Assembly (NCBI GenBank): GCA_016793485.1
Contig: JAEULZ010000016.1
Coordinates: forward strand, 155,837 to 219,836
DNA: 64,000 bases
Direction of reading: 5' to 3'
Source: Mesorhizobium sp.
GTDB lineage: Bacteria > Pseudomonadota > Alphaproteobacteria > Rhizobiales > Rhizobiaceae
Made by a program: the position numbers and the translations under genes. Shown in pieces: positions 12,544 to 40,231 of this stretch. Under the pieces are notes generated by a model. The model ran no database searches, was not told the origin of the DNA, and saw nothing but the letters and a program-made list of their open reading frames with translations. Positions within the stretch are counted from its first letter, which is position 1, and the number at the start of each line of letters is the position of its first letter.

Positions 12544-14819
<2,276 letters not shown>

Positions 14820-14834
14820 TCAACCAGCCGTCCA

Positions 14835-15525: not shown

Positions 15526-15539
15526 TGGTGCGGAACCGG

Positions 15540-15809: not shown

Positions 15810-15835
15810 GGTCTATCTCCTTAAGTCGCTACTCT

Positions 15836-16803: not shown

Positions 16804-16893
16804 GGAGAAGTGGCAGAGTGGTCGAATGCACCGCACTCGAAATGCGGCATGGGTGCAAGCCCATCGGGGGTTCGAATCCCTCCTTCTCCGCCA
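16804..16893 (+). tRNA. tRNA-Ser(CGA)
   Basis: GGAGAAG/CTTCTCC acceptor stem, CCGCA-CT-CGA-AA-TGCGG anticodon arm, long variable arm, GTTCGAATC T loop, encoded CCA; 90 nt. Confidence 0.97.
16880..16893 (+). repeat. att core copy 1 (tRNA 3' end)
   Basis: CTCCTTCTCCGCCA, identical at 38212-38225 and 52567-52580. Confidence 0.93.
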
Positions 16894-18137: not shown

Positions 18138-19043
18138 ATGGACAGACCAGAGCGGGCGCTGACGCGCGACGACTTCATCGACGCCGAAGATTGGTATCGC
18201 TATCAACACGAAGGCGGGTTCTTGCGGCGCGTCCATCGAGGCCAGCGGTACGTGCCTGCGCTGAGTAATGGCCCGTGGGCGCAGTTGGTCAACATGACCC
18301 ATGATGTCAGGGAAAAGCCGGAGCGACAGTACAGCCGCCTTTCGACAGGATTACGGGGCAAGGAGGTTGACCTCCTCTGGAAGGCTGTCGCTTTGGCAAA
18401 CCTCCAATCACAAGTTTTGAACGTCCACGTCACAATTGCATGGTCGACTGTGGGCGTCATAGCCGAGGCAGAAGTCGCTCAAGCCAACGAGGAGTTCTTA
18501 GAGCGGATGCGTAAGCGGTTGAGCGATCTGGGCGTACCTCATGCCTGGATTTGGGTTCTGGAGCGCAAGCCGACCATAGGGCTGCACACCCACATCCTTG
18601 CTCATGTTCCCATGCGATATCATTGGGCCTTCAAGAAGTGGACGCGCAGCGGCTTTCGATCAGCGACGGGCTCGGTTCCAGTAGAGGACGGACCAAGCTT
18701 GTCGGTCATGGTGAAGACGGCCCACGATCGAGATTGCAGGCAGCAGCAGATTTGGTTCGATTATCTGGTCAAGGGTTTGAACAAGGGCGAGGTGTATCTC
18801 GACCAAAATGACGCGCGCGCACGATACGACATTGCCATGGTCGGCCGATTGAAGTTGAAAAGGCAAGGCGTGGTTTCGGTCAAACGAAGCGGATATGCCC
18901 GCGCTATAGGCCCAGCTGTCCTCGACCGGTTTCTGGCCAGATATCCATATGCGAATTATGACCTCGCAGACCGTGGACCGATCGCACACCGTTTCCTGCT
19001 CGCGGGCGAAACCTGCCGTATGATCGCTGGGCTCGACATCTAA
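18138..19043 (+). CDS. HUH-superfamily endonuclease (rolling-circle Rep-like)
   Basis: HVTIAW (motif 1-like), GLHTHIL (HUH), DYLVKG (YxxK). Confidence 0.7.
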   Translation: MDRPERALTRDDFIDAEDWYRYQHEGGFLRRVHRGQRYVPALSNGPWAQLVNMTHDVREKPERQYSRLSTGLRGKEVDLLWKAVALANLQSQVLNVHVTIAWSTVGVIAEAEVAQANEEFLERMRKRLSDLGVPHAWIWVLERKPTIGLHTHILAHVPMRYHWAFKKWTRSGFRSATGSVPVEDGPSLSVMVKTAHDRDCRQQQIWFDYLVKGLNKGEVYLDQNDARARYDIAMVGRLKLKRQGVVSVKRSGYARAIGPAVLDRFLARYPYANYDLADRGPIAHRFLLAGETCRMIAGLDI

Positions 19044-22822: not shown

Positions 22823-23179
22823 ATGTGTGGTCGGTTCACACGATACCTGTCCTGGTCGGAGATCCATCGGCTCTATCGGCTGACGGCGCCGGAAGACATC
22901 GGCCGCAACGCGCCGGCACGCTACAACATTGCGCCAACCGAGGATGTGCTGTTCGTCACGCAGGACCGTGACGGCGCGCAGAAGCTCAGGGAGGGCCGCT
23001 GGTGGCTCGTGCCGTGGTGGGCGAAGGAAACGCCCAAGGCGGCGATGTTCAACGCCCGCATCGAGACGGCAGACACATCTGGCGCCTTCAATTGCCTGGA
23101 GCCGCGAAGCCAACCCTGCCGTTGGCGAATACGGCGAACCAATGACGCTTTTTCAGGCTGGCGAGATTCCGGACTTTGA
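22823..23179 (+). pseudogene. truncated SRAP/YedK (HMCES-like) abasic-site protein
   Basis: MCGRF, RYNIAPT, WWLVPWW, FNARIET present; similarity stops at ~aa 89 (~23089), before the expected C-terminal half. Confidence 0.8.
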
Positions 23180-23918: not shown

Positions 23919-24125
23919 ATGACGGTACGGGAGGCTGCTCTCCAGGCAGTCGGCGTCGACGTGCATGCTTCTTCTTCAGACCGAAATCAGTTGTCCGGCC
24001 TGCCGGACATCTACCAAATCCCCGGTCAGGCATTTTCCGGTTATGGTGAATTCACGCCTATAACCGTGCGCTCTGACACGGTGATCTCGGATGCCCACTT
24101 GGAACGACATCAACGCCGAGATTGA
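23919..24125 (+). CDS. small hypothetical protein overlapping protease start
   Basis: strong SD AGGAGG before ATG 23919; 68 aa; 35-nt overlap with next gene. Confidence 0.45.
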   Translation: MTVREAALQAVGVDVHASSSDRNQLSGLPDIYQIPGQAFSGYGEFTPITVRSDTVISDAHLERHQRRD

Positions 24126-24993
24126 TGGTCTCGGCACGCCCAACGCGTGCGATGAAGTTCGACAAAAATATCTGCAGCAGCTCGAACGGCGCGTCGGCCG
24201 AACTGTTCTGGCGTACTATTCGGGCTTCCTCCAGAAGCGCTCTGCCGATGGCAGGTTTCACCCGGAATGCGCGATAACGGACCTCGACATGAACGGCCTT
24301 ATGGCCGTGGTTCACAATGTCGACCGGACACGCGGCCTCGATCTCATTCTTCATACACCAGGTGGAGGCATTGAGGCCGGACGCTCAGCGGTAGAGTATC
24401 TCTACAAGATGTTCGGACTGGATATTCGTGTCATCGTCCCTCACATGGCCATGTCTGTCGGGACCATGATTGCTTGTGCATCCAGGGAGATCGTGATGGG
24501 TAAGCACTCCTGCCTCGGGCCAACCGATCCTCAAGTGAAGGGCCACCCAGCGATGGGCGTTCTGTCAGAAGTGGATCGTGCCATAGCGGAAATCAAAGCC
24601 GAACAGCTTAAGGCCATACTCTGGCAGCAGGTGTTCTCGAAATATCCGCCCGCTTTCATTGCCGACTGTGAGCGGTCACTGGAAGGCACGCGAGAAATGG
24701 TCACGACCTGGCTGCGCCAAAACATGTTCGCTGCGGCGGGCGATCCTGGAGCGGCGGCGACAGAGACCGTGAACCGACTGATGGACTATGCGGGCACAAC
24801 AGAACATGGGCACCATTTCCTGATCGATAAGTGCCAGGAGATGGGACTGACCGTTGTCGCGCTGGAGGATGACCAGAACCTTCAAGAAGACGTACTAAGC
24901 GTGCATCACTCCTTTGTCGCCACGTTCGCAAAGACGCCGTCGATTAAGCTTATCCAGAACGCTGCTGGCGCCAACTGGACAGTCGCGGGCTAA
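24091..24993 (+). CDS. ClpP-fold serine protease (SDH/S49-like)
   Basis: LDLILHTPGG, VPHMAMSVGTMIA (nucleophile Ser), LGPTDPQ, EHGHH. Confidence 0.85.
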   Translation: MPTWNDINAEIDGLGTPNACDEVRQKYLQQLERRVGRTVLAYYSGFLQKRSADGRFHPECAITDLDMNGLMAVVHNVDRTRGLDLILHTPGGGIEAGRSAVEYLYKMFGLDIRVIVPHMAMSVGTMIACASREIVMGKHSCLGPTDPQVKGHPAMGVLSEVDRAIAEIKAEQLKAILWQQVFSKYPPAFIADCERSLEGTREMVTTWLRQNMFAAAGDPGAAATETVNRLMDYAGTTEHGHHFLIDKCQEMGLTVVALEDDQNLQEDVLSVHHSFVATFAKTPSIKLIQNAAGANWTVAG

Positions 24994-25010: not shown

Positions 25011-25268
25011 TTACATGCCTGCGGCTGCTCTGTGCGCCTGCGCAATCAGACGGGAGATTGCGACTCGATCTGCGACCTCAGAGCACGAAAAATGCCCGTG
25101 CCGATAGGCACCATGCGCCATGCCCCGAGGAGCGCCACCCCCAGCGCCATGCATGCGACAGACATGCTTTCCCCGGACCGCAGGCGCCTTGCAGCGCAGC
25201 CCCGACCGCTTCGACTTGGCTTTGCATCTAAGCGCTGCATTCGCACGGTGCATGGGGTTAGCCTCCAT
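25011..25268 (-). CDS. HGGxSTG-like zinc-finger protein
   Basis: RCKAKSKRSGLRCKAPAVRGKHVCRMHG...GAPRG...YRHG; start uncertain. Confidence 0.7.
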   Translation of the reverse strand: MEANPMHRANAALRCKAKSKRSGLRCKAPAVRGKHVCRMHGAGGGAPRGMAHGAYRHGHFSCSEVADRVAISRLIAQAHRAAAGM

Positions 25269-25917
25269 TTTTCTCACTCCCCCCGTGCTGGACGTTGCCG
25301 ACGATCGCCTGTCCGCCCTGTTCGACGTTGACCCTTTCGACATAGACACGCTGCTCTCCTTTGGAACGATACCGCTTCAGCGCTTCCACCTGGGCGGTGA
25401 ATGTGCGGGCGAGTTTGTTGAAGGCCTTCTCGTCGGCGTCCTGCTGCAGGATGGTGGCCGCATGGGATAGCCTGCGGGAGAATGTCATCATCGCCATATG
25501 CACCGCCGCCATCTGTGCGCCAAGCATCGCTTCCACCTGGTCTCGTGGCTCAACTCCAGTGATCACCGAGATCACGAAATTGCAGGCATTCTCATCGACC
25601 TCTTGGCCGGGCGAGGCGATGTTGGCAATCTGGTTGAGCAGGCCGCTGGTGAAGTCGGCATTGCACGTTCCCATCGCCTCCATAAGCAGCGTGTAGCCAG
25701 CCGCTCCATTCGCATGGTCGATTGAGATGTGACCTTGGCCGTCCTTCTTGGTGACCTTGAGCCGTGGGACCGGGTTGGCTTTCTGGCGACGCGTATGTTG
25801 GCGACGCATAGCTTCATGCTCGAGACGGTTGGCCGGCTCATAGATCTTCTTCAGCTTCTTGTCGGTGGCGTCCTCTTCGGGCTCTGCGACAGGCACCACG
25901 TTTGACTTCCTGCTCAA
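25258..25917 (-). CDS. conserved-looking mobile-element hypothetical protein
   Basis: 219 aa; EPRDQVEAMLGAQM, KLARTFTAQVEALKRYR, VNVEQGGQAIVGNV. Confidence 0.7.
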   Translation of the reverse strand: MSRKSNVVPVAEPEEDATDKKLKKIYEPANRLEHEAMRRQHTRRQKANPVPRLKVTKKDGQGHISIDHANGAAGYTLLMEAMGTCNADFTSGLLNQIANIASPGQEVDENACNFVISVITGVEPRDQVEAMLGAQMAAVHMAMMTFSRRLSHAATILQQDADEKAFNKLARTFTAQVEALKRYRSKGEQRVYVERVNVEQGGQAIVGNVQHGGSEKNGG

Positions 25918-26252
25918 TGTCTTGTCTCCCCGATGCGGCGGATGTCTTCAGCGGCGAGTCTGGCAAGCAGGTTGACCGCATGCTCGATCATGATCTGGCC
26001 GAAGTGGTGGTAGCAGAGAGCATTCGCCCAATCGTCACGCTGCCGGCGTTCCTCGGCGACGGTGTGGCAGCCGCGGGCGAAGGCGAGGAAAGTGAACAGG
26101 TGATCGACATTGCCTGCCGGTCCATCCAGGACTCGATCGACTTCTGCCTGTAGCTCGCCGGGAATGCCGTCGCCGGTGGCCTGCGCCTCCATCCATCTCT
26201 CGATGCCGCGCATGAGATCGGGAAGGGTGGGGATGCTGATCTGGTCCGTCAT
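25914..26252 (-). CDS. hypothetical protein
   Basis: MTDQISIP start; stop overlaps next start. Confidence 0.55.
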   Translation of the reverse strand: MTDQISIPTLPDLMRGIERWMEAQATGDGIPGELQAEVDRVLDGPAGNVDHLFTFLAFARGCHTVAEERRQRDDWANALCYHHFGQIMIEHAVNLLARLAAEDIRRIGETRH

Positions 26253-26290
26253 CTTCCTTGTCTCCTGTGTTTCCGGTATTCTTCGCCACG

Positions 26291-26500
26291 ATGGCCTATG
26301 ACCACTTCCGACCACCTGAGCACTTCTCGCCGAGAGGGCGTTTCCTGTTCCGGGCGCTGTGCTGGGTGACATTCATCGTCGGTATGCTGGCCTTCAGCTA
26401 TTTCGTTGTTCCGATCATCGCGCAGTACGTTTCCCAGCCCTTTTCGGAGTGGGTAGGGAACACCATCTTCGGGCCTAAGGACGCTGCCTCCCCACGGTGA
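26291..26500 (+). CDS. small single-pass membrane protein convergent with ejection-like gene
   Basis: 69 aa from MAYDHF; hydrophobic stretch FLFRALCWVTFIVGMLAFSYFVVPIIA. Confidence 0.55.
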   Translation: MAYDHFRPPEHFSPRGRFLFRALCWVTFIVGMLAFSYFVVPIIAQYVSQPFSEWVGNTIFGPKDAASPR

Positions 26501-28563
26501 TCTCCAGCGGCCGGCGTTCCTGCTGAGGCAATGCCGGAAGCGATCCACCCCTGAGCGTCGCACCACCCGTTCCTGAAGGGTTGACCGGGACAGGCCTCGT
26601 CGTCGCGGCTCGTGCCCTGCTGGTGCGTGCAACGGCTCCTGCGCTCCGTGTGGCAGTTCCTGCAATGGCACCAAGCCCAAGCGATTCCAGAGGCCCCAGT
26701 CCACCCATATGGCCACCCCCGGCTGCGAGCGCCGTGACGATGCCCTGGGCGTACTTCTGCAGCGTCGGCATCAGCCGGTTGGCTGTGTTCGAGAAGTTCT
26801 GTCCTGAACGGTTCGGCGACATGGCGCGCATGACATTGGCATAGGCCGCCATCATCTTGCGCTCCTCCTCGGAGAACAGGACGTTGGCAACGGCACGGCC
26901 ATCGCCCTTCAGCATGCCATCCAGGTTCTTGGCGATCTGCGATGGGTTCAGCGTCTCGTCGCCGGCACGGGTTGCACGAAGCCAGAACGACTGACGGATG
27001 CCAGACCAGTGCGGGCTGTCGGCGCCGAGATGTTTTTTCAACTCCTGCGCGGTCATAAACGCACTGCCTTTCGGAGAGGCGACAGAGGTGCCCCACAGAA
27101 GCTTGCCGACCTCTTCAGGACTCATATCCTTGTCCACGATGGACCGTAGGCGCGCCTGTGCCTCATAGCGGGGATTAAGACCTGCACCCTGCTTGCGGCG
27201 CGGCTCTGCCATGGCCTTGTACTCGGACCATTTGGATCGGGCCGTCTTCAACTCGGCGAGCACATCGTCGCTGGCGCTGACAAGGCCGCGTTCAAAGATA
27301 TCATCTGTCCAGTCATCGAGCGCACGGCTGATTGACTTCAATGCAGGCGCATCCGGTCCCATCGGCGGGAAGTTCTTGCGCACAGACGAGCGCATGTTTT
27401 CGATCCACCGCAACTGGGCTTGGACACCAGACACGTCGCCGGTCTCTTTTGGAAGCCGGCCAATGTAATCGTCGATAAACTTGAGGGCTCGGGATGCTCC
27501 CTGATGGTACATCGGATCCACGACGATCTGGTCTGCATCGAGCCGCTGCCCGATAAAGCCGGGAAGGTCGCGTACGGCGTCGCCCGATACGAGCACGTCG
27601 GGATTGTTCACCGAAGCCTCATAGGCGTCCTGGCTGGCAGCCTTCAGCCCATCACGCTTTCCACGGAGCGCACCGGGCACGGTGTCATAGGCGTCAGCCT
27701 GTCCGGCAATGCGCGGCTGCTGACCCGCGATGCGACCTTGTACGTCATCGATCGACTGACCGAGTGCTGCACGCTGCGCCTGGTCGAATGCCTGCATGTC
27801 GCCCTGAGAGCGAAGCTGATCTTCGATATTGGCCTGGCTGACAGAGCGCGTCGCCTGTGCACGGGAAAGCGGGATGCCGAATTGTTCCGCCTCCGAAACG
27901 TTGGCCGCTGGATTGACGCCGGGTGCGGCATCGCCGGCGCCCTGAAATGCTCGACGGTAAAGTGCGCCACCTCCAGTGGCCAAGCTTTCTCCAGCGAGAC
28001 CAAATCCCGCTCCTATGGGCACATTGTACGCCGCGCCCTCAACTCTTTCGCGCGCGTTCTCGCCGCTACCTGCCCCATAGAGGCCTGCCGCAATGGCACC
28101 GTCTGCCGATCCACCGAGAAGACGCACCAGCCAGCCCTTGCCCGCCTGCGCCGCATTGGCAGCGAGAGACAGCCCACCCTTGGCGAGCGCGATTCCACCG
28201 CCGACGCCGCCGGCAATCTGTCCGCCGAGATGGGAATACGGGTATGCCTCGGCATCAGCATCTCCCTGAGCGGATTTCGCCGACAAGCTCATCGTACCCT
28301 TTGCCATGACCACCGGGCAGCATGCCGCCGAGAGAGCCGACCGCAGCCGCAGCCTCATCTGCGAGCCCGAATGTTGCCGTGTCAGCAAAGCCTCTCGCAA
28401 TGGCACGGGCACGACTGGGCCGATCGAGTGGATCGCTATCCTGCTGCCCGACAAGCTCAAAGCCGGCAGGTGGCGGCGGAATGTCGGATCCGCTCTGCAT
28501 GGGCACAAGCTCGAAGCCTGGAGGCGGTGCTGGGATTTGTGATGCTGTTCCGGCCATGTCCAT
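26475..28563 (-). pseudogene. large phage DNA-ejection-like protein split by a frameshift near 28269
   Basis: N-terminal ORF (PAPPPGFELV x2, ARGFADTATFGLADE) ends ...GEIRSGRC*, while the other frame continues QGDADAEAYPYS into the 677-aa ORF; removing one base joins them into ~695 aa; could be a sequencing error. Confidence 0.7.
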
Positions 28564-28568
28564 TGTCC

Positions 28569-28871
28569 TCAATGCAGGTTGCCAGTTTCGTCGGCCTGGC
28601 CGCTCGCAATCGCCATAAGCTCCTGATCGGTCATCTCGATCATCGGCCGGTTGCTGACCACGGCCATCTGCTGCATGGGCTTGCCATCGAGGCGATCAGC
28701 GATTTCCTTGATCGCAGAGACGTCGCCGGCAATGGCCTTGGTCACGAGGATCTCTGCCAGTTCGCGCAGCCTGGGCTGTCCGCTCTCGCCGGTTTCGTGC
28801 ACGGCAACGCGCAGCATGTTGGCGAAGGTCTTCTCGCTCTTGCGGCGCCCGCTGTTCGAATTTCCGGCCAT
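28569..28871 (-). CDS. terminase small subunit-like (DUF5681-like) protein
   Basis: MAGNSNSGRRK, LVTKAIAGDVSAIKEIADRLDGKPMQ, MTDQEL. Confidence 0.6.
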   Translation of the reverse strand: MAGNSNSGRRKSEKTFANMLRVAVHETGESGQPRLRELAEILVTKAIAGDVSAIKEIADRLDGKPMQQMAVVSNRPMIEMTDQELMAIASGQADETGNLH

Positions 28872-28905
28872 TTTTAATATGCCCAAGCTGTTGGTTTCAT
28901 TTGCA

Positions 28906-30720
28906 TCAGCGGACAGGGCTCCACTGCTGGCCATCCCATTCCAGTTCCTCGCCTGTCTGGGGATTACGGGCGCGCTGGCGGCCGGTGGATGAACCAGCAC
29001 CGCGAGTTGCGCCGGAGCCTTTGGGCTGATCCGGGAAAAGCGGATTGGCCTCTGACCAGCGTGCAAGCTCGTCATCGAAGCCGGCATTGATCCTGCCGCC
29101 GTTACGTTCAGCGTACTGCCGGGCAAGCTGGGCGACCTGCTGCTTGCGCTGGTTCAGCTTGCGCTGGATGCCCACCAACTGCTTGTTGCCCTGAGGGGTG
29201 TTCTGCAGGTTCGGAACCTGGTCCAGCACGAAGTCACGGTCGGCATTGGAGAAGCCGGAGCCGAGAGAACCGCCCATGCTGTCGAGAGCAGCCTGCTTGG
29301 CCATGGCGTTGAAGGTCTCGATGCTGTCGATACCGTCTGCGCCCTCGATGCCGAGTGCCTGGCCGTATCGCTTCAGAGCGGTGACGGAACCGGATGCAGC
29401 GCCCGAGTAGAAGCCCGGATCGGACATTGCCTGATCCATCACATCGAGGGCGTTGAGCGCACGCTGTGCCGTCTGCGACCCGTCCTGAATCTCCATGAAG
29501 CGCTTTGCGTAGCCCTCACCGAGCGTCTTGTCGTACCCCTTCTCGGAGCCAACGTTAACGTTGGTGGCGCTCGCCCGCTTCTGATCGAGCTGGTACTGTG
29601 CAAAACCGGGATCGCGCTGGCTGTACTGATATTCTCGCATGTCGTCAGTCGGCTTCACGTCGCCACGACGAAGCTGATCGACCTCAAGCAGAGCTTTCTC
29701 GTAAGCCAGCTTCTTCATCGGATCGCCCTGATCCTGCATGGCGGCAATACGGGACCGCGCCACGTCGATCGCCAGCGGGCGGGTGATCGGGTTCGCCATC
29801 AGCTGCTTCATCAGGGTGGGGTCGAGATTGAAGCCGCCTGTCGAGAGGGAGCCGCCCTGAGGCTGTGGCATCTGACCACTACCCATAGGCATGCTCTGCC
29901 CGACAGCGAGGTTCTCCAGCGCCCCCTGCGATGGCGATGCGCCGAACTGCTGGGCGTAGCGCTCAACCTCCTGCATGCGCGCTGCGGTCTCGCCTCCGGG
30001 CTGATCGTGACCGGCAAAGCGCCATGCCGCGTTCATCAGTTCCTGCGCTTCCTGCGGTGAGCGAGCAGCATTGAGCTTCTGGATCAGCGATGGGTCTTCC
30101 TGGACGAGGAACTGCGCCTGTGTCTCGGGCGAAGGAGAATTGGGATCGTCGCCGGCCTGCTGGGCAAACTGCTGGAGAGCCTGTAGACGTGGACCGCGCC
30201 ACGACATGATGCCGCCAGATGTTCCGGGCTGTCCGGATTGGCTGGGATCGTCCCACTGGCCAAAAGCGTTCTGCGCCTTGAAGCCGCTTTCGCGAGAGCC
30301 GGTCGCAGCTATTGCCGACAGTGCAGCCGGGTTGTTTACGCCGCCGGCTTTGACCGTGCGCATGAACCGACCGAAGATGTCACTACCCTGTGGCAGGCGA
30401 TCCTGCTTGGGCGCTGCAGTCGGCATCGGGGAGCGCTCGTCGCTGAAGCCCCGGGCGACGCGCTGGGACGGGTCCATGCCGATATCGGGCAATGGTGCGC
30501 GCGTGACCTGTCCCTGAGACGGCGCTGCCAGCGAAGCAAGGCTCATCGGCTGTTGGCCGTTCTGCTGCATGCCACCCTGGCTGAAAAGTTGCTCGGTGAG
30601 CTTGGCTGCTTCCCGCCGGTCTTTGATGCCGCGAGAGAACTCAAAACCAGTGCGGAACGCATCGTCGGCGCCACGCGAGTCGGCAAGGAAGTTGAGTTCC
30701 GGGTAGGTGATGTTAACCAC
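28906..30720 (-). CDS. phage DNA-ejection-like protein with tail-lysozyme-type domain
   Basis: AIAATGSRESGF...GIMSWRGPRLQALQQFA...PETQAQFLVQE; Q/G/A-rich; C-terminal ARNPQTGEELEWDGQQW. Confidence 0.7.
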   Translation of the reverse strand: MVNITYPELNFLADSRGADDAFRTGFEFSRGIKDRREAAKLTEQLFSQGGMQQNGQQPMSLASLAAPSQGQVTRAPLPDIGMDPSQRVARGFSDERSPMPTAAPKQDRLPQGSDIFGRFMRTVKAGGVNNPAALSAIAATGSRESGFKAQNAFGQWDDPSQSGQPGTSGGIMSWRGPRLQALQQFAQQAGDDPNSPSPETQAQFLVQEDPSLIQKLNAARSPQEAQELMNAAWRFAGHDQPGGETAARMQEVERYAQQFGASPSQGALENLAVGQSMPMGSGQMPQPQGGSLSTGGFNLDPTLMKQLMANPITRPLAIDVARSRIAAMQDQGDPMKKLAYEKALLEVDQLRRGDVKPTDDMREYQYSQRDPGFAQYQLDQKRASATNVNVGSEKGYDKTLGEGYAKRFMEIQDGSQTAQRALNALDVMDQAMSDPGFYSGAASGSVTALKRYGQALGIEGADGIDSIETFNAMAKQAALDSMGGSLGSGFSNADRDFVLDQVPNLQNTPQGNKQLVGIQRKLNQRKQQVAQLARQYAERNGGRINAGFDDELARWSEANPLFPDQPKGSGATRGAGSSTGRQRARNPQTGEELEWDGQQWSPVR

Positions 30721-30722
30721 GG

Positions 30723-30905
30723 TCAGTTGCTCCTCTGCATTGCGACAAGCGCTGCAGTCTCATCGACAACACGATGGCCGAAGCCGGTGGGAAGTGTCTC
30801 GACGCCGGGCAGTCGGCCGGCACGCGCATCAGCGATGATGCCGCCAATCGGCCGACAGTCGCGCTTGTGGCGGCTCCATAGGGCCATGAGGGTCAGGTCG
30901 CTCAC
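30723..30905 (-). CDS. small hypothetical protein
   Basis: 60 aa; start overlaps upstream stop. Confidence 0.5.
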   Translation of the reverse strand: MSDLTLMALWSRHKRDCRPIGGIIADARAGRLPGVETLPTGFGHRVVDETAALVAMQRSN

Positions 30906-31057
30906 GCGGCAATCCTCCGTGCAGCTTCCGTCGCCGTCTGGCGGAGGAAGTCGGAAAGTGTAAGCCCACGACGCCGTGCGATCTCGATCAGTTGGCGCTT
31001 CTCATCGCTACTGACACGCACCTTGATCAGCTCGTTCATGGGTTTGGTAAAGCGCAT
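30902..31057 (-). CDS. ribbon-helix-helix DNA-binding protein
   Basis: IKVRVSSDEKRQLIEIARRRGLTLSDFLR. Confidence 0.75.
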   Translation of the reverse strand: MRFTKPMNELIKVRVSSDEKRQLIEIARRRGLTLSDFLRQTATEAARRIAA

Positions 31058-31146
31058 GGCTGCCTCCAGATCGACTGGAGGCAATCTAGCATGGCTCGCG
31101 TGTCCACAGAAGTCATAAAGACTAAGTAAAACAACATGTTAAGTGT

Positions 31147-31423: not shown

Positions 31424-32326
31424 ATGAAGTTCACCAAGCCATCGCTTTCCATCGCGGAACAAATCGCGCGGATTGAGGCTCGTGGGATGGTTGTTCCAGA
31501 TCACGGCATCGCTACCCACTATCTTCGTCACATCAGCTATTACCGACTCAGGGCTTATTGGCTTCCTTTCGAAGACGCAGCTCCAGCTGATGGGGAACAC
31601 ATATTCAAGGTGGGAACCAGTTTTGACGATGTCTTGGCACTCTATGTTTTTGACAGGCGTCTTCGGCTCCTGATCATGGACGCGATCGAACGGGTGGAGG
31701 TATCTCTGCGCGGCTGTTGGGCGCATCATCTGGCAATGAAATATGGGCCACACGGCTACCTCGATCCGGCGCTGTACCATCATCCGGATCGCTATGCCCA
31801 ATCGTTTACGACCCTCATATCGGAGGTAGATAAATCGAAGGACACGTTCATCCTACACTACAAGCAGAAGTACGATGATCCCCAGCATCCGCCGATTTGG
31901 ATGACTGCCGAAATCATCTCGCTTGGTCAGCTTTCAATGTGGCTCAGCAACCTGAAAGAGCGCGCCGACCGCCAGGCAATAGCGAAACCCTATGGACTGG
32001 ACCAAGTTATCCTTGTCTCGCTGGCGCACCATCTCACCTACATCCGGAATATTTGCGCTCATCACGGGCGCCTCTGGAACAAGCAGGTGACGGTAAAAAT
32101 GATGGTACCCAATTCGCCTGCGAGCCTGAAACTTGCAATGAACCCGGCGTCGCAGGGGCGAATCTACAATACGCTGGCAGTGCTTGGCTATCTGCTTGGG
32201 ATAGTCGCACCCGGTACTCGCTGGCGTCAGGAACTCATAGAACTGATGGATAGCTCGCCGTTGGCGGACACAGCGGCGATGGGCTTCCCGCCAAACTGGA
32301 AGAACATGCCGGCCTGGTCAGTGTAG
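31424..32326 (+). CDS. Abi_2 (AbiD/AbiF) family HEPN abortive-infection protein
   Basis: KPSLSIAEQI, ISYYRLRAY, LYVFDRRLR, PPIW, RNICAH (Rx4H). Confidence 0.9.
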   Translation: MKFTKPSLSIAEQIARIEARGMVVPDHGIATHYLRHISYYRLRAYWLPFEDAAPADGEHIFKVGTSFDDVLALYVFDRRLRLLIMDAIERVEVSLRGCWAHHLAMKYGPHGYLDPALYHHPDRYAQSFTTLISEVDKSKDTFILHYKQKYDDPQHPPIWMTAEIISLGQLSMWLSNLKERADRQAIAKPYGLDQVILVSLAHHLTYIRNICAHHGRLWNKQVTVKMMVPNSPASLKLAMNPASQGRIYNTLAVLGYLLGIVAPGTRWRQELIELMDSSPLADTAAMGFPPNWKNMPAWSV

Positions 32327-32381: not shown

Positions 32382-34118
32382 TCACCTGCTGTTCTTGGTC
32401 GGGCGAACAACTTCGATATCGACAGTCCGGATCGAGCGTTTCGATGTCTTCGTCTCCTTGAGGCCGCCGCCTTTGATTGGAAAAAGCAGTTCGCCTTGGC
32501 CTTCGACGTGCTTTTTCGATCTTCTTGGTTGGCGGGCAGGCATTGTTGATCGGCCGACATCGGGCGGGTCGACAACGCCAGGCACCTCCAGCGCACCACG
32601 CTGAAAAAGCATGTCCACGGTTATAATCTGAATCTTTGGCACGCGCTTCGATGGAGGACCCACATCGCCCTCTGAAAACGCTTCTCTTGTCATTGGGCCG
32701 GTAGGTGGATTGAGGCAGATAAGTACGCCGAATTCGGCGTTTTCCCGCTTAATGACCGACTTCAATTTATGAACCGCATCAACACCCACATTCAATCCGC
32801 CTTTTACGGAAACCACCGCACGGTTGGGCTGTTCGATGCCGACCCGATGATATCGAATGATACCATCGATCCCGCCGTCCGCTCCGGGTTTTTCTTTGGG
32901 TAGGCCTCCTAAGGCAAACACTGCCCACTTCTGAAATTCCAACCAATCTCGTGCCGCCAGAACGCTTGCGTCGTTTGCATCGCGCGGTTGGCCGAGCACT
33001 TTGTAGGTGTCTTTCACACCGTTACCGAACGCTTCGGCCAAGCGGCTCTCAATAACATGTATTGCAAGGTAGGTGACGTCGACCCCAATCCATGCCCGCT
33101 TCAAGCGTTCAGCGGCTTCAACAGCCGTACCACAGCCGCAAAATGGATCTAGCACCACTTGCCCGGGTTCCGTAGCCGCTTCGATTATCCGCTCCAGTAA
33201 CGCGAGCGGTTTCTGCGTCGGATAGCCAATACGCTCCTTCGCTTGCGAGTTCACGGGAAAGATATCCGTCCATACATCGCCCAGGGCAACGCCCGGCCTT
33301 TGGTCCAGATAGTTCTTTAGACGCGGCATTCCACGCTTGCTGTAAACAAGTCTGCCGTCCGCTTCGAACCGCTCCATATTCTCTCTGGAATAAGCCCAAT
33401 AGCGCCCCTGCGGCGGGCGGACGCCTTTCCAATCGTAGGACGTATCGCCGCCGGGCTTAGCAGCGGTGAGGTCGCTTGTGGTGAACTGTCGGCCGGTGTC
33501 GGCCTCCTTGGAGGAATAGTGACTTGTTATGTAATCGTCGCTGAGGGGCGCAAATAGCACCTTCCATGTGCCCCGCTCCGACTTACCGTAGTAGAGAATC
33601 GTGTCGTGTGTTCGCCCGAAGCGGGACAAACCCTGAGCGGCATCACTATGAGCGCTTGTTCTTTTCCAGACAATTTCGTTTCGGAAGCATTGAACCCCGA
33701 AAATCGTATCGAGTAGCAATTTGAGGTAATGGCTGGCGGTCGGATCACAATGTAGGAAAAGGGAGCCGGAAGATTTCAGCACTCTCCGCATTTCCACGAG
33801 GCGTACGGCCATCATGGCAATGTAGGCCATCATTTTGCTGTCGCCGAACACCTTCTTGAAGGCGTCTAATAGTGCGCCGGCTTCTAGGTGCCTAGCGGCG
33901 GTTTCGTTCAACGCGCGCTGCGCATCGCGACCCCAAGTCCAAGTGTCCTCGAACGCGTGTGATTGAGCTTGAGACGGCCCGCCCCGCTTAGTTCCGTAAA
34001 GTACATTGTAGTTGGCGTTGGAGTTGAAAGGAGGGTCGAGGTATATCAAGTCGACCACCTCTGCGGGCATATTTCGGAGTACGTCTAGATTATCACCGAA
34101 ATGTAGTTCGTTCATCAC
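32382..34118 (-). CDS. beta-class N4/N6 DNA methyltransferase with C-terminal Mrr-like nuclease domain
   Basis: DLIYLDPPF, GYPTQKP, LDPFCGCGT; C-terminal GADGGIDG...VSVKGG. Confidence 0.85.
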   Translation of the reverse strand: MMNELHFGDNLDVLRNMPAEVVDLIYLDPPFNSNANYNVLYGTKRGGPSQAQSHAFEDTWTWGRDAQRALNETAARHLEAGALLDAFKKVFGDSKMMAYIAMMAVRLVEMRRVLKSSGSLFLHCDPTASHYLKLLLDTIFGVQCFRNEIVWKRTSAHSDAAQGLSRFGRTHDTILYYGKSERGTWKVLFAPLSDDYITSHYSSKEADTGRQFTTSDLTAAKPGGDTSYDWKGVRPPQGRYWAYSRENMERFEADGRLVYSKRGMPRLKNYLDQRPGVALGDVWTDIFPVNSQAKERIGYPTQKPLALLERIIEAATEPGQVVLDPFCGCGTAVEAAERLKRAWIGVDVTYLAIHVIESRLAEAFGNGVKDTYKVLGQPRDANDASVLAARDWLEFQKWAVFALGGLPKEKPGADGGIDGIIRYHRVGIEQPNRAVVSVKGGLNVGVDAVHKLKSVIKRENAEFGVLICLNPPTGPMTREAFSEGDVGPPSKRVPKIQIITVDMLFQRGALEVPGVVDPPDVGRSTMPARQPRRSKKHVEGQGELLFPIKGGGLKETKTSKRSIRTVDIEVVRPTKNSR

Positions 34119-34256: not shown

Positions 34257-34922
34257 TCATCCACGCGCACTCGTATCGCGAACGATCCTGCTGCTCAGGA
34301 GTGCGCGGCTGACGTCGCCGATCGGTACAGGGGATATGGTAGATATAGATGTGCGTGCTTTTTTCACGCCATCAACATCGCCAAACGGCCCTTTATGGCG
34401 TGCATCTTTCACGCCATTGGGGTGCTTTTTGCACGCCATGCAGTCTGGAATGGCGTGCTTTTTGCACACGTATGGCGTGCTTTTTTCACGCCGCGTTTTG
34501 TTTTTCTCGGCTGCTGCGGGCTCCCAACTCTTGAACTCGTAGGTCGGCGTCAGGGAGCGCTCGGGGAAGTCGGCTGGCAGTTCGGTAAGACGCCAGGTTG
34601 TCGCGCGACCAGCGTTTTGGAAACGAACCTTCCAATTGAACGTGCCCTTCTGGATGGCAATGATAAAGCCACGATCCTGAAGTTCCTTGAACCCGACAAT
34701 GACAGGCCTGTTGGAGCAGCCGAGCAGCTCGGCCGCCTCACGATAGGACATCGAGATGTCACCGTTGTTCATTCCGGTGAACTTCGCCCGCAACTCGATG
34801 TAGAGCAGCCGGGCATAGGGACTGAGAGACCGCCACGCGTCGGTCTTGCGAATCCAGTGGAAGAGTTGCGTATAAGCGGGGCCGCCCTTCTTATTGCCAC
34901 GACGGTCCACGCGGCTCATCAC
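34257..34922 (-). CDS. winged-helix replication initiator-like protein
   Basis: LSPYARLLYIEL...NNGDISMSYREAAELLGCS...FKELQDRGFI; iteron-like repeats inside the 3' half. Confidence 0.7.
   Translation of the reverse strand: MMSRVDRRGNKKGGPAYTQLFHWIRKTDAWRSLSPYARLLYIELRAKFTGMNNGDISMSYREAAELLGCSNRPVIVGFKELQDRGFIIAIQKGTFNWKVRFQNAGRATTWRLTELPADFPERSLTPTYEFKSWEPAAAEKNKTRREKSTPYVCKKHAIPDCMACKKHPNGVKDARHKGPFGDVDGVKKARTSISTISPVPIGDVSRALLSSRIVRDTSARG
34351..34494. repeat. five palindromic iteron-like repeats inside rep gene
   Basis: consensus TGGCGTGC-TTTTT-(G/T)CACGCCA at ~34351, 34396, 34418, 34451, 34473. Confidence 0.8.
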
Positions 34923-35428
34923 GCCACCGCCTTTCCGGGAGCGAACTCGCCAAAATGCTCTTTCTCGGCGGCGATGCGCGCGGCAATGGCATCCTCGATC
35001 TCAATGAAATGGCCGAGCGAGACCGTGCGGTTGTCGATGCCGATGTATGCCTGCCATTTCGAGGAAGCTTTGACGAAGGTTACGCCGACACGACCGCTGC
35101 CGGTATCCTTGTCAGGGCGCCGGTTGCGGGCATTCTGGAGCGGAGTGGCTTCCCGGAGGTTCTTCCACCTGTTGTCAGCCCGCATGCCGTTGATGTGGTC
35201 GATGTGATGCTGCGGCCACTCGCCCGTCATCAGCAGCCAGATCACGCGGTGGGCCTTGTAGAGCCGGTAATCGACCTCGACTTGGGTATAGCCGTGGCTG
35301 CTGCGCGTGCCCACCAGTGCACCTTTTAAAGCGCCGGGACGGGCAATGCGCCAGTTCAGGGAACCGGTCTCGGGATCGTAGACCAGAACTTCCTGGGCGC
35401 GTTCGTAGGTGAGGATTGGCTTGCTCAT
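34919..35428 (-). CDS. HNH endonuclease with AP2-like domain
   Basis: YKAHRVIW...IDHINGMRADNRWKNLR; GRVGVTF...WQAYI...LGHF. Confidence 0.9.
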   Translation of the reverse strand: MSKPILTYERAQEVLVYDPETGSLNWRIARPGALKGALVGTRSSHGYTQVEVDYRLYKAHRVIWLLMTGEWPQHHIDHINGMRADNRWKNLREATPLQNARNRRPDKDTGSGRVGVTFVKASSKWQAYIGIDNRTVSLGHFIEIEDAIAARIAAEKEHFGEFAPGKAVA

Positions 35429-35639: not shown

Positions 35640-35816
35640 TTACGCCGCAACCGGAAGCGACTTCACGTAGCGTTCAAGATCCTCGACGAGGATAAGCGTG
35701 CTGCGGCCGTTCTTGCGAGGGGTGAGCTTCTTTTCCGAAAAGAGCTTGTAGATGGAGGTCCGAGAGATGCCGGTCATTTCGACCGCCTCCGGAATCGAGA
35801 CTGCGAGCTTGGTCAT
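35640..35816 (-). CDS. excisionase-like HTH protein
   Basis: SIPEAVEMTGISRTSIYKL...PRKNGRSTLI. Confidence 0.85.
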   Translation of the reverse strand: MTKLAVSIPEAVEMTGISRTSIYKLFSEKKLTPRKNGRSTLILVEDLERYVKSLPVAA

Positions 35817-35950
35817 GGGCTTGAGGTTTCTCGCCGGCAGTAAGCCGCCGGTGCGCACCCCGGCGAATACCGGAGCGTCCCTCAGATGCTGCATTTCTCA
35901 GGGCGGGGATAATCCCCAACTGCGAGAAATTTTCGACGGAGTTGCTCACG

Positions 35951-36858: not shown

Positions 36859-38067
36859 CTATCCCTGCGGGTTCGCTGTTTTCTTCCTGAACTGTGTCAC
36901 GTTGCCGGCCTTCACGGCGCCGACGTAACCGGCCCACGCCGTCATCAATTTGCGGCGCTTCTCCAAGGCGGTCGCCCGCCGGTAAGCGTTCTCTGTGTCA
37001 TCGCCAACCTTGTGCGCAAGGGCGGCCTCCGCGACCTCCCGCGGAAATGAGGTTTCGTCGCCAGCCCAATCTCGGAAGCTGCTTCGAAAGCCGTGGACCG
37101 TGAAATCCACCTTCATGCGCCCCAAAAGATTTTCCATGGCCATGTTGGACAGCGGGCGTCCTTCCTTCTGGCCGGGAAACACCCAACCGTGCTTGTCGCG
37201 GACCTCGTGAAGCTCTCGCAGGATTGCCACGACGCGAGGGACAAGCGGGACTTGGTGTTCCTTGCCCGCCTTCATGCGCTTCGCAGGGATTACCCACAGC
37301 GCGGCGTCCAGATCGATTTCGGTCCAGCGCGCGCCCAGCACCTCCCCAGAGCGACATGCTGTCAGAATAAGAACCTCAAGGGCCTTCGCTGACATGGCTG
37401 CACGGTCAAGCCGCCCAACGAATGCCGGAACCTGTGTATACGGCATTGCCGCATGGTGCCCGCGCTGGAGCTTCTGACGGGGCGGGAGAACGTTCTTGAG
37501 ATGGCCGCGCCACACGGCAGGGTTTTCCCCGGTGCGCCAACCCTTCGTCTTTGCGTAGTTCAGAACGCGCTCCATGCGCCCGCGCAGCCTGGAGGCGGTT
37601 TCGTTCTTCTCATTCCAGATCGGCGTAAGAATGGACAGCACGTCGTCTGTCGTCACGAGCGAGACGCGGCGGTCGCGGATCGGGCTGCAATACTCTGTCA
37701 GGGTCATACGCCACTGGTTGCGGTGCTTATCGTTGCGCCACGACCCGCCCATGGATTCGAGAAACCTGTCAGCGCACTCACCAAAGGTCGGCTCCGCTTC
37801 CTTGGAGCGCTCGGCGATGGGGTCACGGCCGGCCTGTACCTCTGAACGACAATCCGCCGCCATAGTGCGCGCGGCCGACAGCGTGACGGCGGGATAGGAG
37901 CCCAAGCCCATTTCACGTGGAACACCGCCACGCGTCCAGAGAAAGACCCATGCCTTCGATCCGGACACGGAAACGTTGAGGTAAAGCCCGCCGCCATCGC
38001 CGTAGCGCCTGGGCTTCTTCACGCTCTTGACCTGCATGTCCGAAAGCTTGTTCAGAGGGCGGGCCAT
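36859..38067 (-). CDS. P4-type tyrosine integrase of element 1
   Basis: DGGGLYL arm-binding domain, LTACRSGE, HGFRSSFRDW, ALAH, AYRR. Confidence 0.96.
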   Translation of the reverse strand: MARPLNKLSDMQVKSVKKPRRYGDGGGLYLNVSVSGSKAWVFLWTRGGVPREMGLGSYPAVTLSAARTMAADCRSEVQAGRDPIAERSKEAEPTFGECADRFLESMGGSWRNDKHRNQWRMTLTEYCSPIRDRRVSLVTTDDVLSILTPIWNEKNETASRLRGRMERVLNYAKTKGWRTGENPAVWRGHLKNVLPPRQKLQRGHHAAMPYTQVPAFVGRLDRAAMSAKALEVLILTACRSGEVLGARWTEIDLDAALWVIPAKRMKAGKEHQVPLVPRVVAILRELHEVRDKHGWVFPGQKEGRPLSNMAMENLLGRMKVDFTVHGFRSSFRDWAGDETSFPREVAEAALAHKVGDDTENAYRRATALEKRRKLMTAWAGYVGAVKAGNVTQFRKKTANPQG

Positions 38068-38211: not shown

Positions 38212-38225
38212 CTCCTTCTCCGCCA
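38212..38225 (+). repeat. att core copy 2 (junction of elements 1 and 2)
   Basis: CTCCTTCTCCGCCA. Confidence 0.93.
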
Positions 38226-38360: not shown

Positions 38361-39560
38361 TCAGGCCGGCGTCACGCTTGCGCCCGACCGGGCAAGCCGG
38401 GCCAGCAAAACTACGAGCGCAACGTTGACCAGCGCCACGGCAAACAGGACGCCAAGCATAGCGCCTTCGCCATACCCGATCAGCACCGCGCCTATCGACG
38501 GGGCGGCGGCTTGCGCGATCTGGCTTGGCATTGCCAGCTTGCCCATGAGGGCGGCGTATCTTTGCGGGTCGAACAGCACGAGCGGAAGCGCGCCGCGCGC
38601 AATGGTGTGAATGCCGTTGCCAGCGCCGTACAGAATCAGCGCCAGCGCGGTCAGTGGCAAGCTGAACAGCAAAAGGCCCAAGCCCGATGCGAGCAGGATC
38701 ACCGACGCAAGCATGGTCCAGACGGGATGATGGCGGTTGCGACCGATGGCCATTTCGGCAACCCGTGCGCCGACCTGTGCGGGACCGATCAGCGCGCCGA
38801 GGGCGACGGCCGTTGCAAGGTCCAGCCCGCGCGCCTGTAGCACCGCAAGCAGATGGACCGAGACCATGGAGGCAATCAGCGCCGCCAGCGTCAGGACGAG
38901 CGCCAGCAATGCGAATGCCCGTCTTTCCCTGCCCGTCGTGGGCACTGTAGCGCGCGGCCGGTCGGTCGGCCGGTCAATCATTGGCCGGGGAACCGAAGGG
39001 ACCGCGAAGAGGTGAAGCGGCAGACAGATGAACAGATGAATCGCGGCATAGCAAAGACATGCGCCGCGCCAGCCGTAAGCCTCCACGAGATAGGCGCTAA
39101 GCGGCCAGCAAACCGTGCTTGCGAACCCGCCGAAGAGCGTCAGCGTGGTAATGGCGCTCCGGGCCTTCGCGCCATAGAGACGGCCCAAAGTCGAAAAGCC
39201 GGCGTCGTATAACCCGGCCGACATGCCCAAGCCCATGAGCAGCCAAGCGGACAGGAAGACGGGATATGTGCCCGCCACGGCCATGAGCGTCAGCGCCGAG
39301 GCAAGCAGGACCGAACTGGCGGACAGGACCGGCCGGCCTCCATGGCGCTGAATCAATCGGCCCGTGACCGTCGATGCTAGGCCGGCGACCAGAAGCCCGG
39401 CCGACAAGCCGCCGACCACCCATGGAAGCGGCCAACCGGTGTCCGCTGACGTTGGCCCCGCCAGCACGGCCGGGAGATAGTAGGATGATCCCCACGCCAA
39501 TATTTGCGTGGTGCCGAGCGCACCGATCAGGAGCCGCCGTTGCGACGGGGCTTCGCTCAT
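38361..39560 (-). CDS. MFS transporter in ars cluster (ArsK-like)
   Basis: ALGTTQILAWGSSYYL, YDAGFSTL, TLFGGFASTV; ~12 TM; start MSEAP at 39560. Confidence 0.8.
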   Translation of the reverse strand: MSEAPSQRRLLIGALGTTQILAWGSSYYLPAVLAGPTSADTGWPLPWVVGGLSAGLLVAGLASTVTGRLIQRHGGRPVLSASSVLLASALTLMAVAGTYPVFLSAWLLMGLGMSAGLYDAGFSTLGRLYGAKARSAITTLTLFGGFASTVCWPLSAYLVEAYGWRGACLCYAAIHLFICLPLHLFAVPSVPRPMIDRPTDRPRATVPTTGRERRAFALLALVLTLAALIASMVSVHLLAVLQARGLDLATAVALGALIGPAQVGARVAEMAIGRNRHHPVWTMLASVILLASGLGLLLFSLPLTALALILYGAGNGIHTIARGALPLVLFDPQRYAALMGKLAMPSQIAQAAAPSIGAVLIGYGEGAMLGVLFAVALVNVALVVLLARLARSGASVTPA

Positions 39561-40231
39561 ACAGCGCGTGTTGCCGGGCGCAATAACCAGCCGGCCGCGA
39601 TCAGCGCCAGAAGCGCCCCGGCCAGTTGCGCGATGACGAATGCCGGAACGTCGGTCGGACGGATGCCCGCGAACGTGTCGGTGAACGCCCTTGCGACCGT
39701 CACGGCCGGATTGGCGAAGGACGTGGACGAGGTGAACCAATATGCAGCGGTGATGTAGAGGCCGACCAGCCAAGCGACGTTGGGGCGCGCCACCCGGACG
39801 GCTATCAGGATCAGCGCGACGAGGCCGAAGGTTGCCACCCCTTCGGAGAACCATTGCGGCCAGCCGCTTCGCGCCGTCGTTCCCACTTCAAGGATTGGAA
39901 GGTCAAACATAGCGTGCGCCACCATGGTCCCGGCAAGCCCGCCAAGCACCTGAAAGGTGACGTAGCCGGCAAGCTCTCCCATGGGTAGCTCGCCGCGAAA
40001 CGCGAAGGCCAGCGACACGGCCGGATTGAAATGTGCGCCAGACAACGGCCCCAAGACCGAGATTAGAACGGCCAGCGCCGCGCCGGTCGCAATGGCGTTG
40101 CACAGGAGCGCCAATGCAACGTCATCGGTAAGCCGGTCGGCCATGATGCCGGAGCCGACCACGGCGGCGACAAGCAAGCCCGTGCCCGCGCTTTCCGCCG
40201 CCATCCGGCGCGACAAACTGAACGTGTCCAT
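39557..40231 (-). CDS. aquaglyceroporin (AqpS-like arsenite channel)
   Basis: SGAHFNPAV and SFANPAV NPA motifs; in ars operon. Confidence 0.9.
   Translation of the reverse strand: MDTFSLSRRMAAESAGTGLLVAAVVGSGIMADRLTDDVALALLCNAIATGAALAVLISVLGPLSGAHFNPAVSLAFAFRGELPMGELAGYVTFQVLGGLAGTMVAHAMFDLPILEVGTTARSGWPQWFSEGVATFGLVALILIAVRVARPNVAWLVGLYITAAYWFTSSTSFANPAVTVARAFTDTFAGIRPTDVPAFVIAQLAGALLALIAAGWLLRPATRAV

Follow-up and report, generated by a model that had tools for sequence, protein, structure and literature searches.

Phage-inducible chromosomal islands (PICIs) and P4-like satellites are 12-21 kb islands in tRNA genes, flanked by attachment (att) sites, that include a tyrosine integrase, an AlpA/HTH_17 regulator, an initiator or primase of their own and accessory defence genes, and that have no full set of virion genes. 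Their known modes of action are the redirection of capsid size or of packaging (Sid/Psu, CpmAB, TerS, Rpp, Ppi) and, in cf-PICI, the building of capsids. To our knowledge, the targets of the satellite families described so far are capsid assembly or size, DNA packaging and helper gene expression, unless capsids of their own are built, and satellites are essentially uncharted in Rhizobiales. The 64,000-nucleotide stretch of the Mesorhizobium sp. contig JAEULZ010000016.1 analyzed here, referred to as the window, includes an att-flanked island of about 21.3 kb (16880-38225) inserted in a tRNA-Ser gene. The island has the features listed above but, unlike the known PICI and P4-like elements, includes no capsid-size gene and no credible TerS; it carries putative ejection genes instead. 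Its backbone is that of a known Gram-negative satellite type, and the novelty lies in the cargo, a putative hijacking module in the form of an operon that includes the genes for two large proteins, p604 and p695. We see about an even chance that the island belongs to the PICI-like satellites, with Rhizobiales podoviruses as its helpers and with a pair of ejection proteins of its own. The best reading of its morphogenetic contribution is a private pair of internal-virion proteins, and not a redirection of capsid size or packaging. Full-text literature searches returned no report of a satellite that has ejection or internal-virion proteins.

The anatomy of the operon was established in silico. 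All coordinates are those of the window, the operon genes are on the minus strand, and names such as L002 designate related loci. An initial annotation of the region had described a leftward operon of a ribbon-helix-helix (RHH) regulator, a small open reading frame (ORF) and a 604-amino acid protein, with HGGxSTG-like (HGG) and partner genes farther on. These genes are present on the minus strand, and the complete order is RHH, p60, p604, DUF5681-like ORF, p695, p112, p219 (a 219-amino acid protein) and HGG; p112 is a conserved operon gene that the annotation had overlooked. Its statement that no capsid, portal, TerL or tail gene is recognizable holds for the whole island, as profile scans of every ORF between 16880 and 38225 gave no match to these families.

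The protein p604 matches the Phage_lysozyme2 family (PF18013) at amino acids 130-258 with 31.9 bits (gathering cut-off 28.2), and both the tail-lysozyme motif and the NPxTGE...W tail that had been read in it are there (C-terminus ...RARNPQTGEELEWDGQQWSPVR; C-terminal tail NPQTGEELEWDGQQW). Its AlphaFold model, with a mean predicted local distance difference test (pLDDT) score of 75, consists from the N- to the C-terminus of four parts: a long N-terminal helix, the muralytic domain (amino acids ~110-260), a helical C-domain (amino acids ~300-570), and a three-strand tail. Among solved structures, the muralytic fold is nearest to 7r6s, a putative phage protein, and to the lysozyme domain of phi29 gp13 (Foldseek probability 0.99-1.0), the latter being a tail-associated cell-wall-degrading enzyme. 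A Foldseek search of the PDB returned no solved relative of the C-domain. Comparison of 226 p604 homologues showed that this C-domain is constant while the N-terminal enzyme varies, and can be a lysozyme2 domain, an M15 peptidase, a glucosaminidase or a SleB-type hydrolase.

The second large protein, p695, begins with the sequence MDMAGTASQIPAPPPGFELV...PPPPAGFELV and includes the PPPGFELV motif twice. The repeats are therefore as initially annotated, but the single intact ORF of about 695 amino acids described with them does not exist in the window, where a GC deletion at about 28269 splits the gene into a 98/105-amino acid N-terminal piece and a 597-amino acid C-terminal frame. Both pieces match consecutive positions of phrog_5880 and align in two frames to intact 700-amino acid homologues. 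Contigs from four runs of the same bioreactor metagenome study were inspected at this site. Those of run X3 have two extra bases (GC) after 28269, which generates a 696-amino acid ORF that is 78% identical over its full length to P0242, and runs X1 and X2 carry the broken allele. Since X3 is intact while X1 and X2 share the allele of the window, the lesion is a recent contraction of GCGC to GC for which the population is polymorphic, and neither old decay nor an obvious assembly error. The p695 family comprises 57 tight clusters of 690-760 amino acids, all of them intact.

The E value of p695 against phrog_5880 is 9e-11, that of an intact homologue 3e-24, and that of the 675-amino acid protein of Rhizobium phage RHph_N2 4e-97. 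The model of the p695 family (pLDDT 76.5) is a large, mostly helical body with hydrophobic, glycine-rich helices close to each end. Foldseek found 45 BFVD matches to it at E<=1e-3, all large phage proteins, one of which is named 'Injection protein' and several of which have LT_GEWL, M15B, SleB or SLT domains. An exhaustive hidden Markov model search extended the superfamily to 6335 representatives (255 at E<=1e-30), and N-terminal SLT, glucosaminidase or Hydrolase_2 domains were present in four of the ten longer members that were scanned. This superfamily has no Pfam family and no solved structure, and the satellite copies are a compact and conserved entry point to it.

Homologues of the p604/p695 pair were found in two contexts, the structural modules of podoviruses and capsid-less loci. 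The Mesorhizobium P22-like prophage or phage L007 encodes, in this order, TerL, a P22_portal protein, scaffold, capsid, a gp10-family Phage_stabilise protein, three small genes, a 549-amino acid protein with a lysozyme2 domain, a 671-amino acid protein, and the tail genes. In the podovirus-like contigs L004-L006 (42-45 kb) an SU10 adaptor, a 606-amino acid protein, an acetyltransferase and an S74 fibre are followed by proteins of 598 and 556 amino acids, a tail fibre and a pectate-lyase spike; the 556-amino acid protein of L004, an alternative second protein, matches phrog_26400 'DNA ejection protein' (1e-29). Rhizobium phage RHph_N2 encodes a 744-amino acid protein and then the 675-amino acid protein, and about 45 further IMG/VR loci have the pair at the same position, a slot that in the P22 genome is filled by the injection proteins gp7/20/16. 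Amino acids 308-567 of p604 are 62% identical to the 598-amino acid protein of L004, amino acids 1-347 are 49% identical to the 549-amino acid protein of L007 (tblastn; reciprocally 54% over amino acids ~58-347), and amino acids 111-259 are 42% identical to the 744-amino acid protein of RHph_N2. When 50,697 phage genomes were searched by tblastn, p604 matched three Rhizobium phages, via the lysozyme domain only, and p695, p219 and the DUF5681-like ORF gave none or marginal matches.

The recurrence of the operon was also followed in silico. Relatives were found by a scan of genome contigs with a tight alignment. At least 12 capsid-less loci, including that of the window, have the organization RHH-p60-[enzyme+C-domain]-p695-type-p112, usually followed by p219-HGG. 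The other loci are L002/L003, L008 (a marine alphaproteobacterial metagenome-assembled genome), L009-L013 (five Mesorhizobium genomes), L029, L030 (Manganibacter), L031 and L032. Candidate cultured carriers are Mesorhizobium sp. Root157, M. denitrificans LA-28, Mesorhizobium sp. L-8-3 and Manganibacter manganicus (L010, L012, L013, L030). The gene set is not a product of chance, because the same operon recurs in at least 11 loci besides this one. The initial annotation had suggested a search for att-flanked elements with these genes and no capsid. Besides the recurrence of the cassette, this search showed that L002 is bounded by 49-nucleotide repeats of the end of a tRNA-Lys gene located 17.2 kb apart; in L030 the distance from integrase to HGG is about 12.5 kb. 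The integrases and insertion sites differ among the loci (tRNA-Ser in the window, tRNA-Lys in L002), and the relatives carry DUF3987 or Toprim primases. A second capsid-less type, represented by L017, L019 and L021 (Hoeflea, Ruegeria and others), includes an integrase, a protein with the p604 C-domain and a protein of the L004 556-amino acid type; L019 has in addition HNH and primase genes, and L018 has an integrase and the pair. In a collection of 72,556 plasmids the cassette was essentially missing.

Genes for virion structure did not accompany the pair. The families listed (25 of 35) for a Pfam scan of 142 ORFs from eight capsid-less loci were those of integrases, primases and host genes; portal, capsid and terminase families were not among them. 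Matches of 68 genes from three reference phage modules to the capsid-less loci were limited to the two ejection genes, apart from a tail fibre in L008. The latter gene (8208-9218 of L008), located between p60 and the p604-like gene, encodes a 337-amino acid tail-fibre or tail-collar protein (phrog_8763 1e-40; Pfam Collar).

Selection was estimated from the ratio of nonsynonymous to synonymous substitution rates (dN/dS) between the window and L032, L002, L029 and L030, comparisons in which dS is saturated (1.0-2.5). The values were 0.08-0.13 for p695, 0.08-0.23 for p112, 0.11-0.23 for p219, 0.14-0.23 for p60, and 0.18-0.27 for p604; the p604/p695 pair is thus under purifying selection in capsid-less elements. 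Rather than having close homologues only in complete prophages, with deletion scars at this locus, the cassette is found under such selection in many capsid-less elements. The second-protein slot is occupied by three types (p695, the L004 556-amino acid type and the L007 671-amino acid type), each of which is mirrored in a real phage lineage, the outcome expected from exchange with helpers. In L029 the second protein is of the L007 671-amino acid type and is 64% identical to the phage protein, yet it is found in the same operon frame. The low dN/dS values, the same non-phage neighbours in spite of different integrases and sites, and the case of L029 therefore exclude independent deletion remnants. 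These comparisons suggest that the module is maintained and that its ejection genes are exchanged with phages.

The two large proteins share a pair of motifs. In all 12 RHH-type loci the first protein ends with ...R(A/T)(R/T)N(P/G)xTG(E/Q)..(E/I)(W/F)(D/N)G..W.PV and the second starts with one or two PPPPGF(E/V/I)(L/M/I) motifs, and this extends to L029, although the phage protein that its second protein otherwise resembles is free of the motif. At the corresponding place in the phage-type loci the tail is absent, with the exception of L074 (IMGVR_UViG_3300005511_000015), a 46-kb viral contig with a head-protein gene and with the pair at 10001-10700. The first ejection protein of L074 ends with ATNPKTGQTLTFRNGKWQ, and the second begins with ...LPPGFVLD, which includes one LPPGF motif. 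The motif pair therefore exists in at least one phage lineage, and phages of the L074 type are candidates for the helper lineage. In its model (pLDDT 84-88) the p604 tail forms a meander of three strands with two tryptophans. It recalls modules that bind proline-rich peptides, such as the WW and GYF domains, PPG-phi being the classical GYF ligand. We propose that the NPxTGE..EW..W tail and the PPPPGF repeats could dock p604 to p695.

We infer the following course of induction, incorporation, ejection and benefit. Upon growth of a helper podovirus, which would belong to the 41-46 kb class, the island would excise, replicate and express the operon. p604 and p695 would then enter the helper procapsids via the domains they have in common with the phage proteins, and at the next infection both would exit through the tail. 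Peptidoglycan would be opened by the lysozyme domain of p604, and p695, through its helical body and its glycine-rich hydrophobic helices, would help build a channel spanning the envelope, so that particles with island DNA would be equipped with a functional ejectosome encoded by the island itself. Foreign proteins may also impair the helper particles that incorporate them, and interference would be a likely by-product; a changed host range, raised in the initial annotation along with helper poisoning, would be a further conceivable effect. A more specific version, which we put forward only tentatively, is that the satellite swaps the injection proteins of the helper for its own docked pair (the WW-like NPxTGE..EW..W tail and PPPPGF) and in this way chooses the particles that deliver DNA, some members also choosing the target cells (the L008 fibre, an extra M23 lysin in L031).

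Several results weigh against a satellite that supplies ejection proteins. No helper phage was identified, no evidence was found for the presence of the proteins in particles, and no capsid-less relative was among the IMG/VR viral contigs retrieved. The depth of the island equals that of its flanks in three metagenomes, which gives no sign of over-replication, and contigs with an excision junction or an empty site were found in none of the four runs. Neither a pac or cos site nor a credible TerS was identified in the island. The frameshift in p695 occurs in two of three samples, and this island may accordingly be non-functional for the proposed role. In L029 no integrase is found within 10 kb upstream of the operon. 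The p219 family, for its part, is also found without the ejection cassette, beside defence genes in L027 and beside transposases in L028. The label 'ejection protein' is itself inferred, from where the genes lie, from how the domains are arranged, from a PHROG label and from the phage proteins that match the fold. The initial comparison with the ejection proteins of P22 and T7 is supported by the position of the homologues in the injection slot of podovirus modules, and sequence profiles show no similarity: hhalign of the p695 family profile gave probabilities of 3.8% and 0.1% with P22 gp16 and gp20, and of 0.07% and 0.3% with T7 gp16 and gp15, and Foldseek matched the p695 model to no solved structure in the PDB. 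A blastp comparison with the P22 gp16/gp20 families gave an E value of 0.02 in a 12-protein database. Because there is no profile relationship to T7 gp15/gp16 or P22 gp16/gp20, p604 and p695 are best regarded as putative analogues of these families that would work alike, and not as members of them.

The operon is located beside defence genes (AbiD and a methyltransferase-Mrr fusion), no packaging function is recognized in the island, and L029 has the operon with no integrase within 10 kb upstream. All three observations would also be expected if the function were interference or defence only, with the ejection homologues acting as dominant-negative decoys and the island not being spread in modified particles. 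Such decoys, which retain the domains common to phage proteins, could co-assemble into podovirus procapsids and render the progeny non-infectious, or reside in the envelope and block incoming DNA, and in this way protect the host population, as the adjacent AbiD and restriction-modification cargo would. We consider this explanation unlikely. The operon is consistently linked to an integrase, AlpA, replication modules and att sites, that is, to a mobile satellite-like backbone, a decoy does not need a muralytic domain kept under purifying selection, and the tail-fibre gene in the operon of L008 makes sense only if particles are used.

The possibility that a lysin and channel pair was co-opted for a non-virion envelope function, such as capsid-independent DNA release or uptake by mobilization, vesicles or lysis, was also evaluated, and we judge it quite improbable. 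In this case the NikA-like RHH protein would be a relaxosome-type accessory protein. It does score above the NikA-like cut-off and weakly matches MbpA/MobA, but its matches extend to the CopG, RelB and TacA models, as RHH families cross-match, and family scans found no relaxase, coupling protein or type IV secretion system genes in the island or its relatives, so that a MOB relaxosome is not what the locus encodes. The weakly matching rolling-circle Rep-like ORF and the glycine-rich hydrophobic segments of p695 would suit such a function; on the other hand, all fold relatives of p695 are phage proteins and the module is essentially missing from the plasmid collection. Finally, it is very improbable that the pair is a functionless remnant of a deleted podovirus prophage, an explanation that the phage origin of the genes, the frameshift in p695 and the truncated SRAP gene (some decay in the island) could suggest, and that is largely refuted at the family level by the same non-phage neighbours (RHH, p60, p112, p219, HGG) in 12 loci with different integrases and sites, by the retention of none of the 66 other phage genes tested, not even as fragments, by the dN/dS range of 0.08-0.27 at saturated dS, and by the 2-nucleotide polymorphic nature of the frameshift, with an intact allele in the same study.

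Table 1. Location of the features of the island in the window.
Feature	Position	Strand	Remarks
attL core CTCCTTCTCCGCCA	16880-16893	+	Last 14 bases of the tRNA-Ser(CGA) gene 16804-16893
Arm-type repeat TTCCCCTGTTTCTTCCCCTGTTT, 23 nt	16948 and 38071		Just inside each island end
Rolling-circle Rep-like ORF	18138-19043		Weak match
Truncated SRAP (SOS-response-associated peptidase)	22823-23179		118 aa; covers the first 91 of 214 profile positions
ClpP-like SDH-type serine protease	24091-24993	+	PF01972 1.9e-19; phrog_11747 3e-73; adjoins the operon on the opposite strand
HGGxSTG-like small protein (HGG)	25011-25349	-	Usual partner of p219
p219, 219 aa	25258-25917	-	Very large unannotated family
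p112, ~112 aa	25914-26252	-	Inside a listed 152-aa ORF; homologues of 109-119 aa; between p695 and p219
p695	26475-28563	-	phrog_5880; frameshifted in the window
DUF5681-like ORF, 100 aa	28569-28871	-	E 1.4e-3, 19.5 bits vs cut-off 27.5
p604, 604 aa	28906-30720	-	Phage_lysozyme2 muralytic domain and helical C-domain
p60, 60 aa	30723-30905	-	Small conserved protein, 49-75% identical in 9 loci
RHH regulator	30902-31084	-	Pfam NikA-like 35.9 bits (cut-off 27); RHH_1 22 bits
AbiD/Abi_2	31424-32326	+	Defence cargo; PADLOC 4.9e-72
N6/N4 methyltransferase fused to Mrr-like nuclease	32382-34118	-	Defence cargo
Replication-initiator-like protein	34257-34922	-	phrog_270, 1.3e-7
Five 18-nt iterons GCGTGCTTTTTTCACGCC	34353-34492		Inside the 3' end of the replication-initiator-like gene
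HNH_3 endonuclease-like protein	34919-35428	-	89% identical in L032, 71% in L002
AlpA/HTH_17-type regulator or excisionase	35640-35894	-	Family-profile match
Tyrosine integrase	36859-38067	-	Arm-DNA-bind_3, Phage_int_M, Phage_integrase; adjoins attR
attR core	38212-38225	+	14-bp repeat of the tRNA-Ser 3' end

The locations of the remaining operon genes, and of those that follow below, are listed in Table 1. RHH is the first gene of the operon and keeps this position in 10 of 11 related loci. A TerS-like gene had been annotated between p604 and p695. This assignment did not survive analysis: the 100-amino acid ORF scores below the DUF5681 cut-off, profile scans returned no TerS family match for it and no TerL in the island, and most related operons do not have it. 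Elsewhere in the island there is an HNH_3 gene. The DUF5681-like ORF is an accessory insertion and not a core operon gene. One DUF5681 protein has been reported in the structural proteome of a Salmonella phage, in the single DUF5681 paper found. In L031 the p695 homologue is followed (11400-16050) by genes for an 841-amino acid Peptidase_M23 protein, two DUF5681 proteins and a helix-turn-helix (HTH) protein; DUF5681 therefore recurs in these elements, and the best PHROG match of a DUF5681 protein of L031 to TerS has an E value of 0.022. The C-terminal part of the HTH protein matches the HGG family (phrog_3678), that is, an HGG domain is fused to an HTH protein.

The p219 family gave 3872 matches at E<=1e-3, many of them on contigs of about 1 kb, and a sequence search of the PDB returned no match for p219. 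The HGG protein scores 25.7 bits with NF041373, against a cut-off of 29, and its motif reads HGAGGGAP; no relevant paper on HGGxSTG came up in a literature search. Given the HTH fusion in L031, an association of the HGG domain with DNA is probable. p219 and HGG were considered as a TerS-like packaging pair, and this was rejected in view of the huge size of the family, its occurrence in unrelated island contexts, and its absence from phage genomes.

The island has a lower G+C content than its flanks. It has att repeats and an integrase, a regulation and replication module of its own, and no virion-building gene set, as PICI-like elements do. Between the integrase and AlpA genes, a minus-strand ORF encodes a 328-amino acid protein (p328) with no family assigned. 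A conserved (R/G)(G/E)APPGFP(A/T)(A/V) motif, the third PPGF-type motif of these islands, is found in a protein of about 300 amino acids adjoining the integrase of L002 (position 5507) and L030 (4869), and in L008 (4066), L010 (4240), L011 (1409) and L013 (931), where the genes are unannotated; p328 does not have it. The AlpA gene is 59-82% identical in five RHH-type loci and 43% identical in a sixth. The iteron array is a probable origin of replication. Iteron-like repeats of other sequence (CGGAAACC...) are found in L002 and L030, within or just past the 3' end of unannotated genes for 241- and 226-amino acid proteins, a matching position. A scan of the region for promoters and terminators gave only background levels.

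The AbiD and methyltransferase-Mrr genes form an inserted defence hotspot that separates the replication module from the ejection operon and is not common to the related elements. The other arm of the island, about 8 kb of cargo with genes on both strands, encodes the SDH protease, the truncated SRAP, an XRE regulator, several unknown proteins, the Rep-like ORF and a PD-(D/E)XK nuclease. The truncated SRAP is a pseudogene fragment. The SDH protease, the one faint echo of a virion gene in the island, was considered as a prohead protease and rejected, as the head-maturation-protease models scored far below their cut-offs and the gene is not conserved in the relatives.

Outside the island, the segment to the right of attR (38361-42093) encodes a major facilitator superfamily (MFS) transporter, a MIP channel, a low-molecular-weight phosphatase (ArsC-like) fusion and a DUF6428 protein, and looks like an arsenic or metalloid resistance cluster. 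It is followed by a second small integrative element (42700-51915) with a tyrosine integrase (50656-51915) and a 760-amino acid RepB-primase/AAA_25 protein (42738-45020), and with no structural genes among the ORFs scanned. Farther on, a 748-amino acid YadA-type trimeric autotransporter adhesin (53290-55536) adjoins an IalB-like protein (52707-53609).

If the island is a satellite that supplies its own ejection proteins, DNA-delivery proteins would be a new point of attack in the conflict between satellites and helpers, and ejection proteins would be exchangeable in trans between genomes. The incorporation of podovirus ejection proteins into procapsids and their matching to the envelope are poorly understood, and the island would offer a natural system for both. 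It would also be the first satellite family to be defined for Rhizobiales, the order of Mesorhizobium and its relatives, which matters for symbiosis and in bioreactor communities.

Among small elements, a close comparison is with the marine virion-encapsidated integrative mobile elements (VEIMEs), integrative and capsid-less, which are packaged as concatemers in helper capsids of native size (PMC9618062). VEIMEs share the integrase, AlpA and primase backbone with the putative satellite family described here; where the main text of that report deals with gene functions, it names capsid-assembly, TerS and HNH functions and no ejection protein, lysozyme or tail fibre (PMC9618062). The closest pair in a cultured phage is that of RHph_N2, gp013 and gp014, which are adjacent, in the same order, and related to p604 and p695 through the lysozyme2 domain and phrog_5880 respectively. 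This pair, annotated as hypothetical, differs in being part of a full structural module and in having neither the NPxTGE..W tail nor the PPPPGF repeats. P22 gp7/gp20/gp16 occupy the same slot as the L007 homologues, after the gp10-family and small head-completion genes and before the tail genes, and in both cases two or three large proteins, mostly helical and partly hydrophobic, are encoded together; P22 gp20 and gp16 have no muralytic domain, unlike p604. The likeness to T7 gp14/gp15/gp16 is that a muralytic domain is attached to, or encoded beside, a very large helical body, and that the genes are located between those for the nozzle and the tail fibre. T7 gp16 carries a transglycosylase, as members of the p695 superfamily carry N-terminal SLT, glucosaminidase or SleB-type domains; unlike that of T7, the muralytic domain of the present pair is of the Phage_lysozyme2 type and is located on the first protein.

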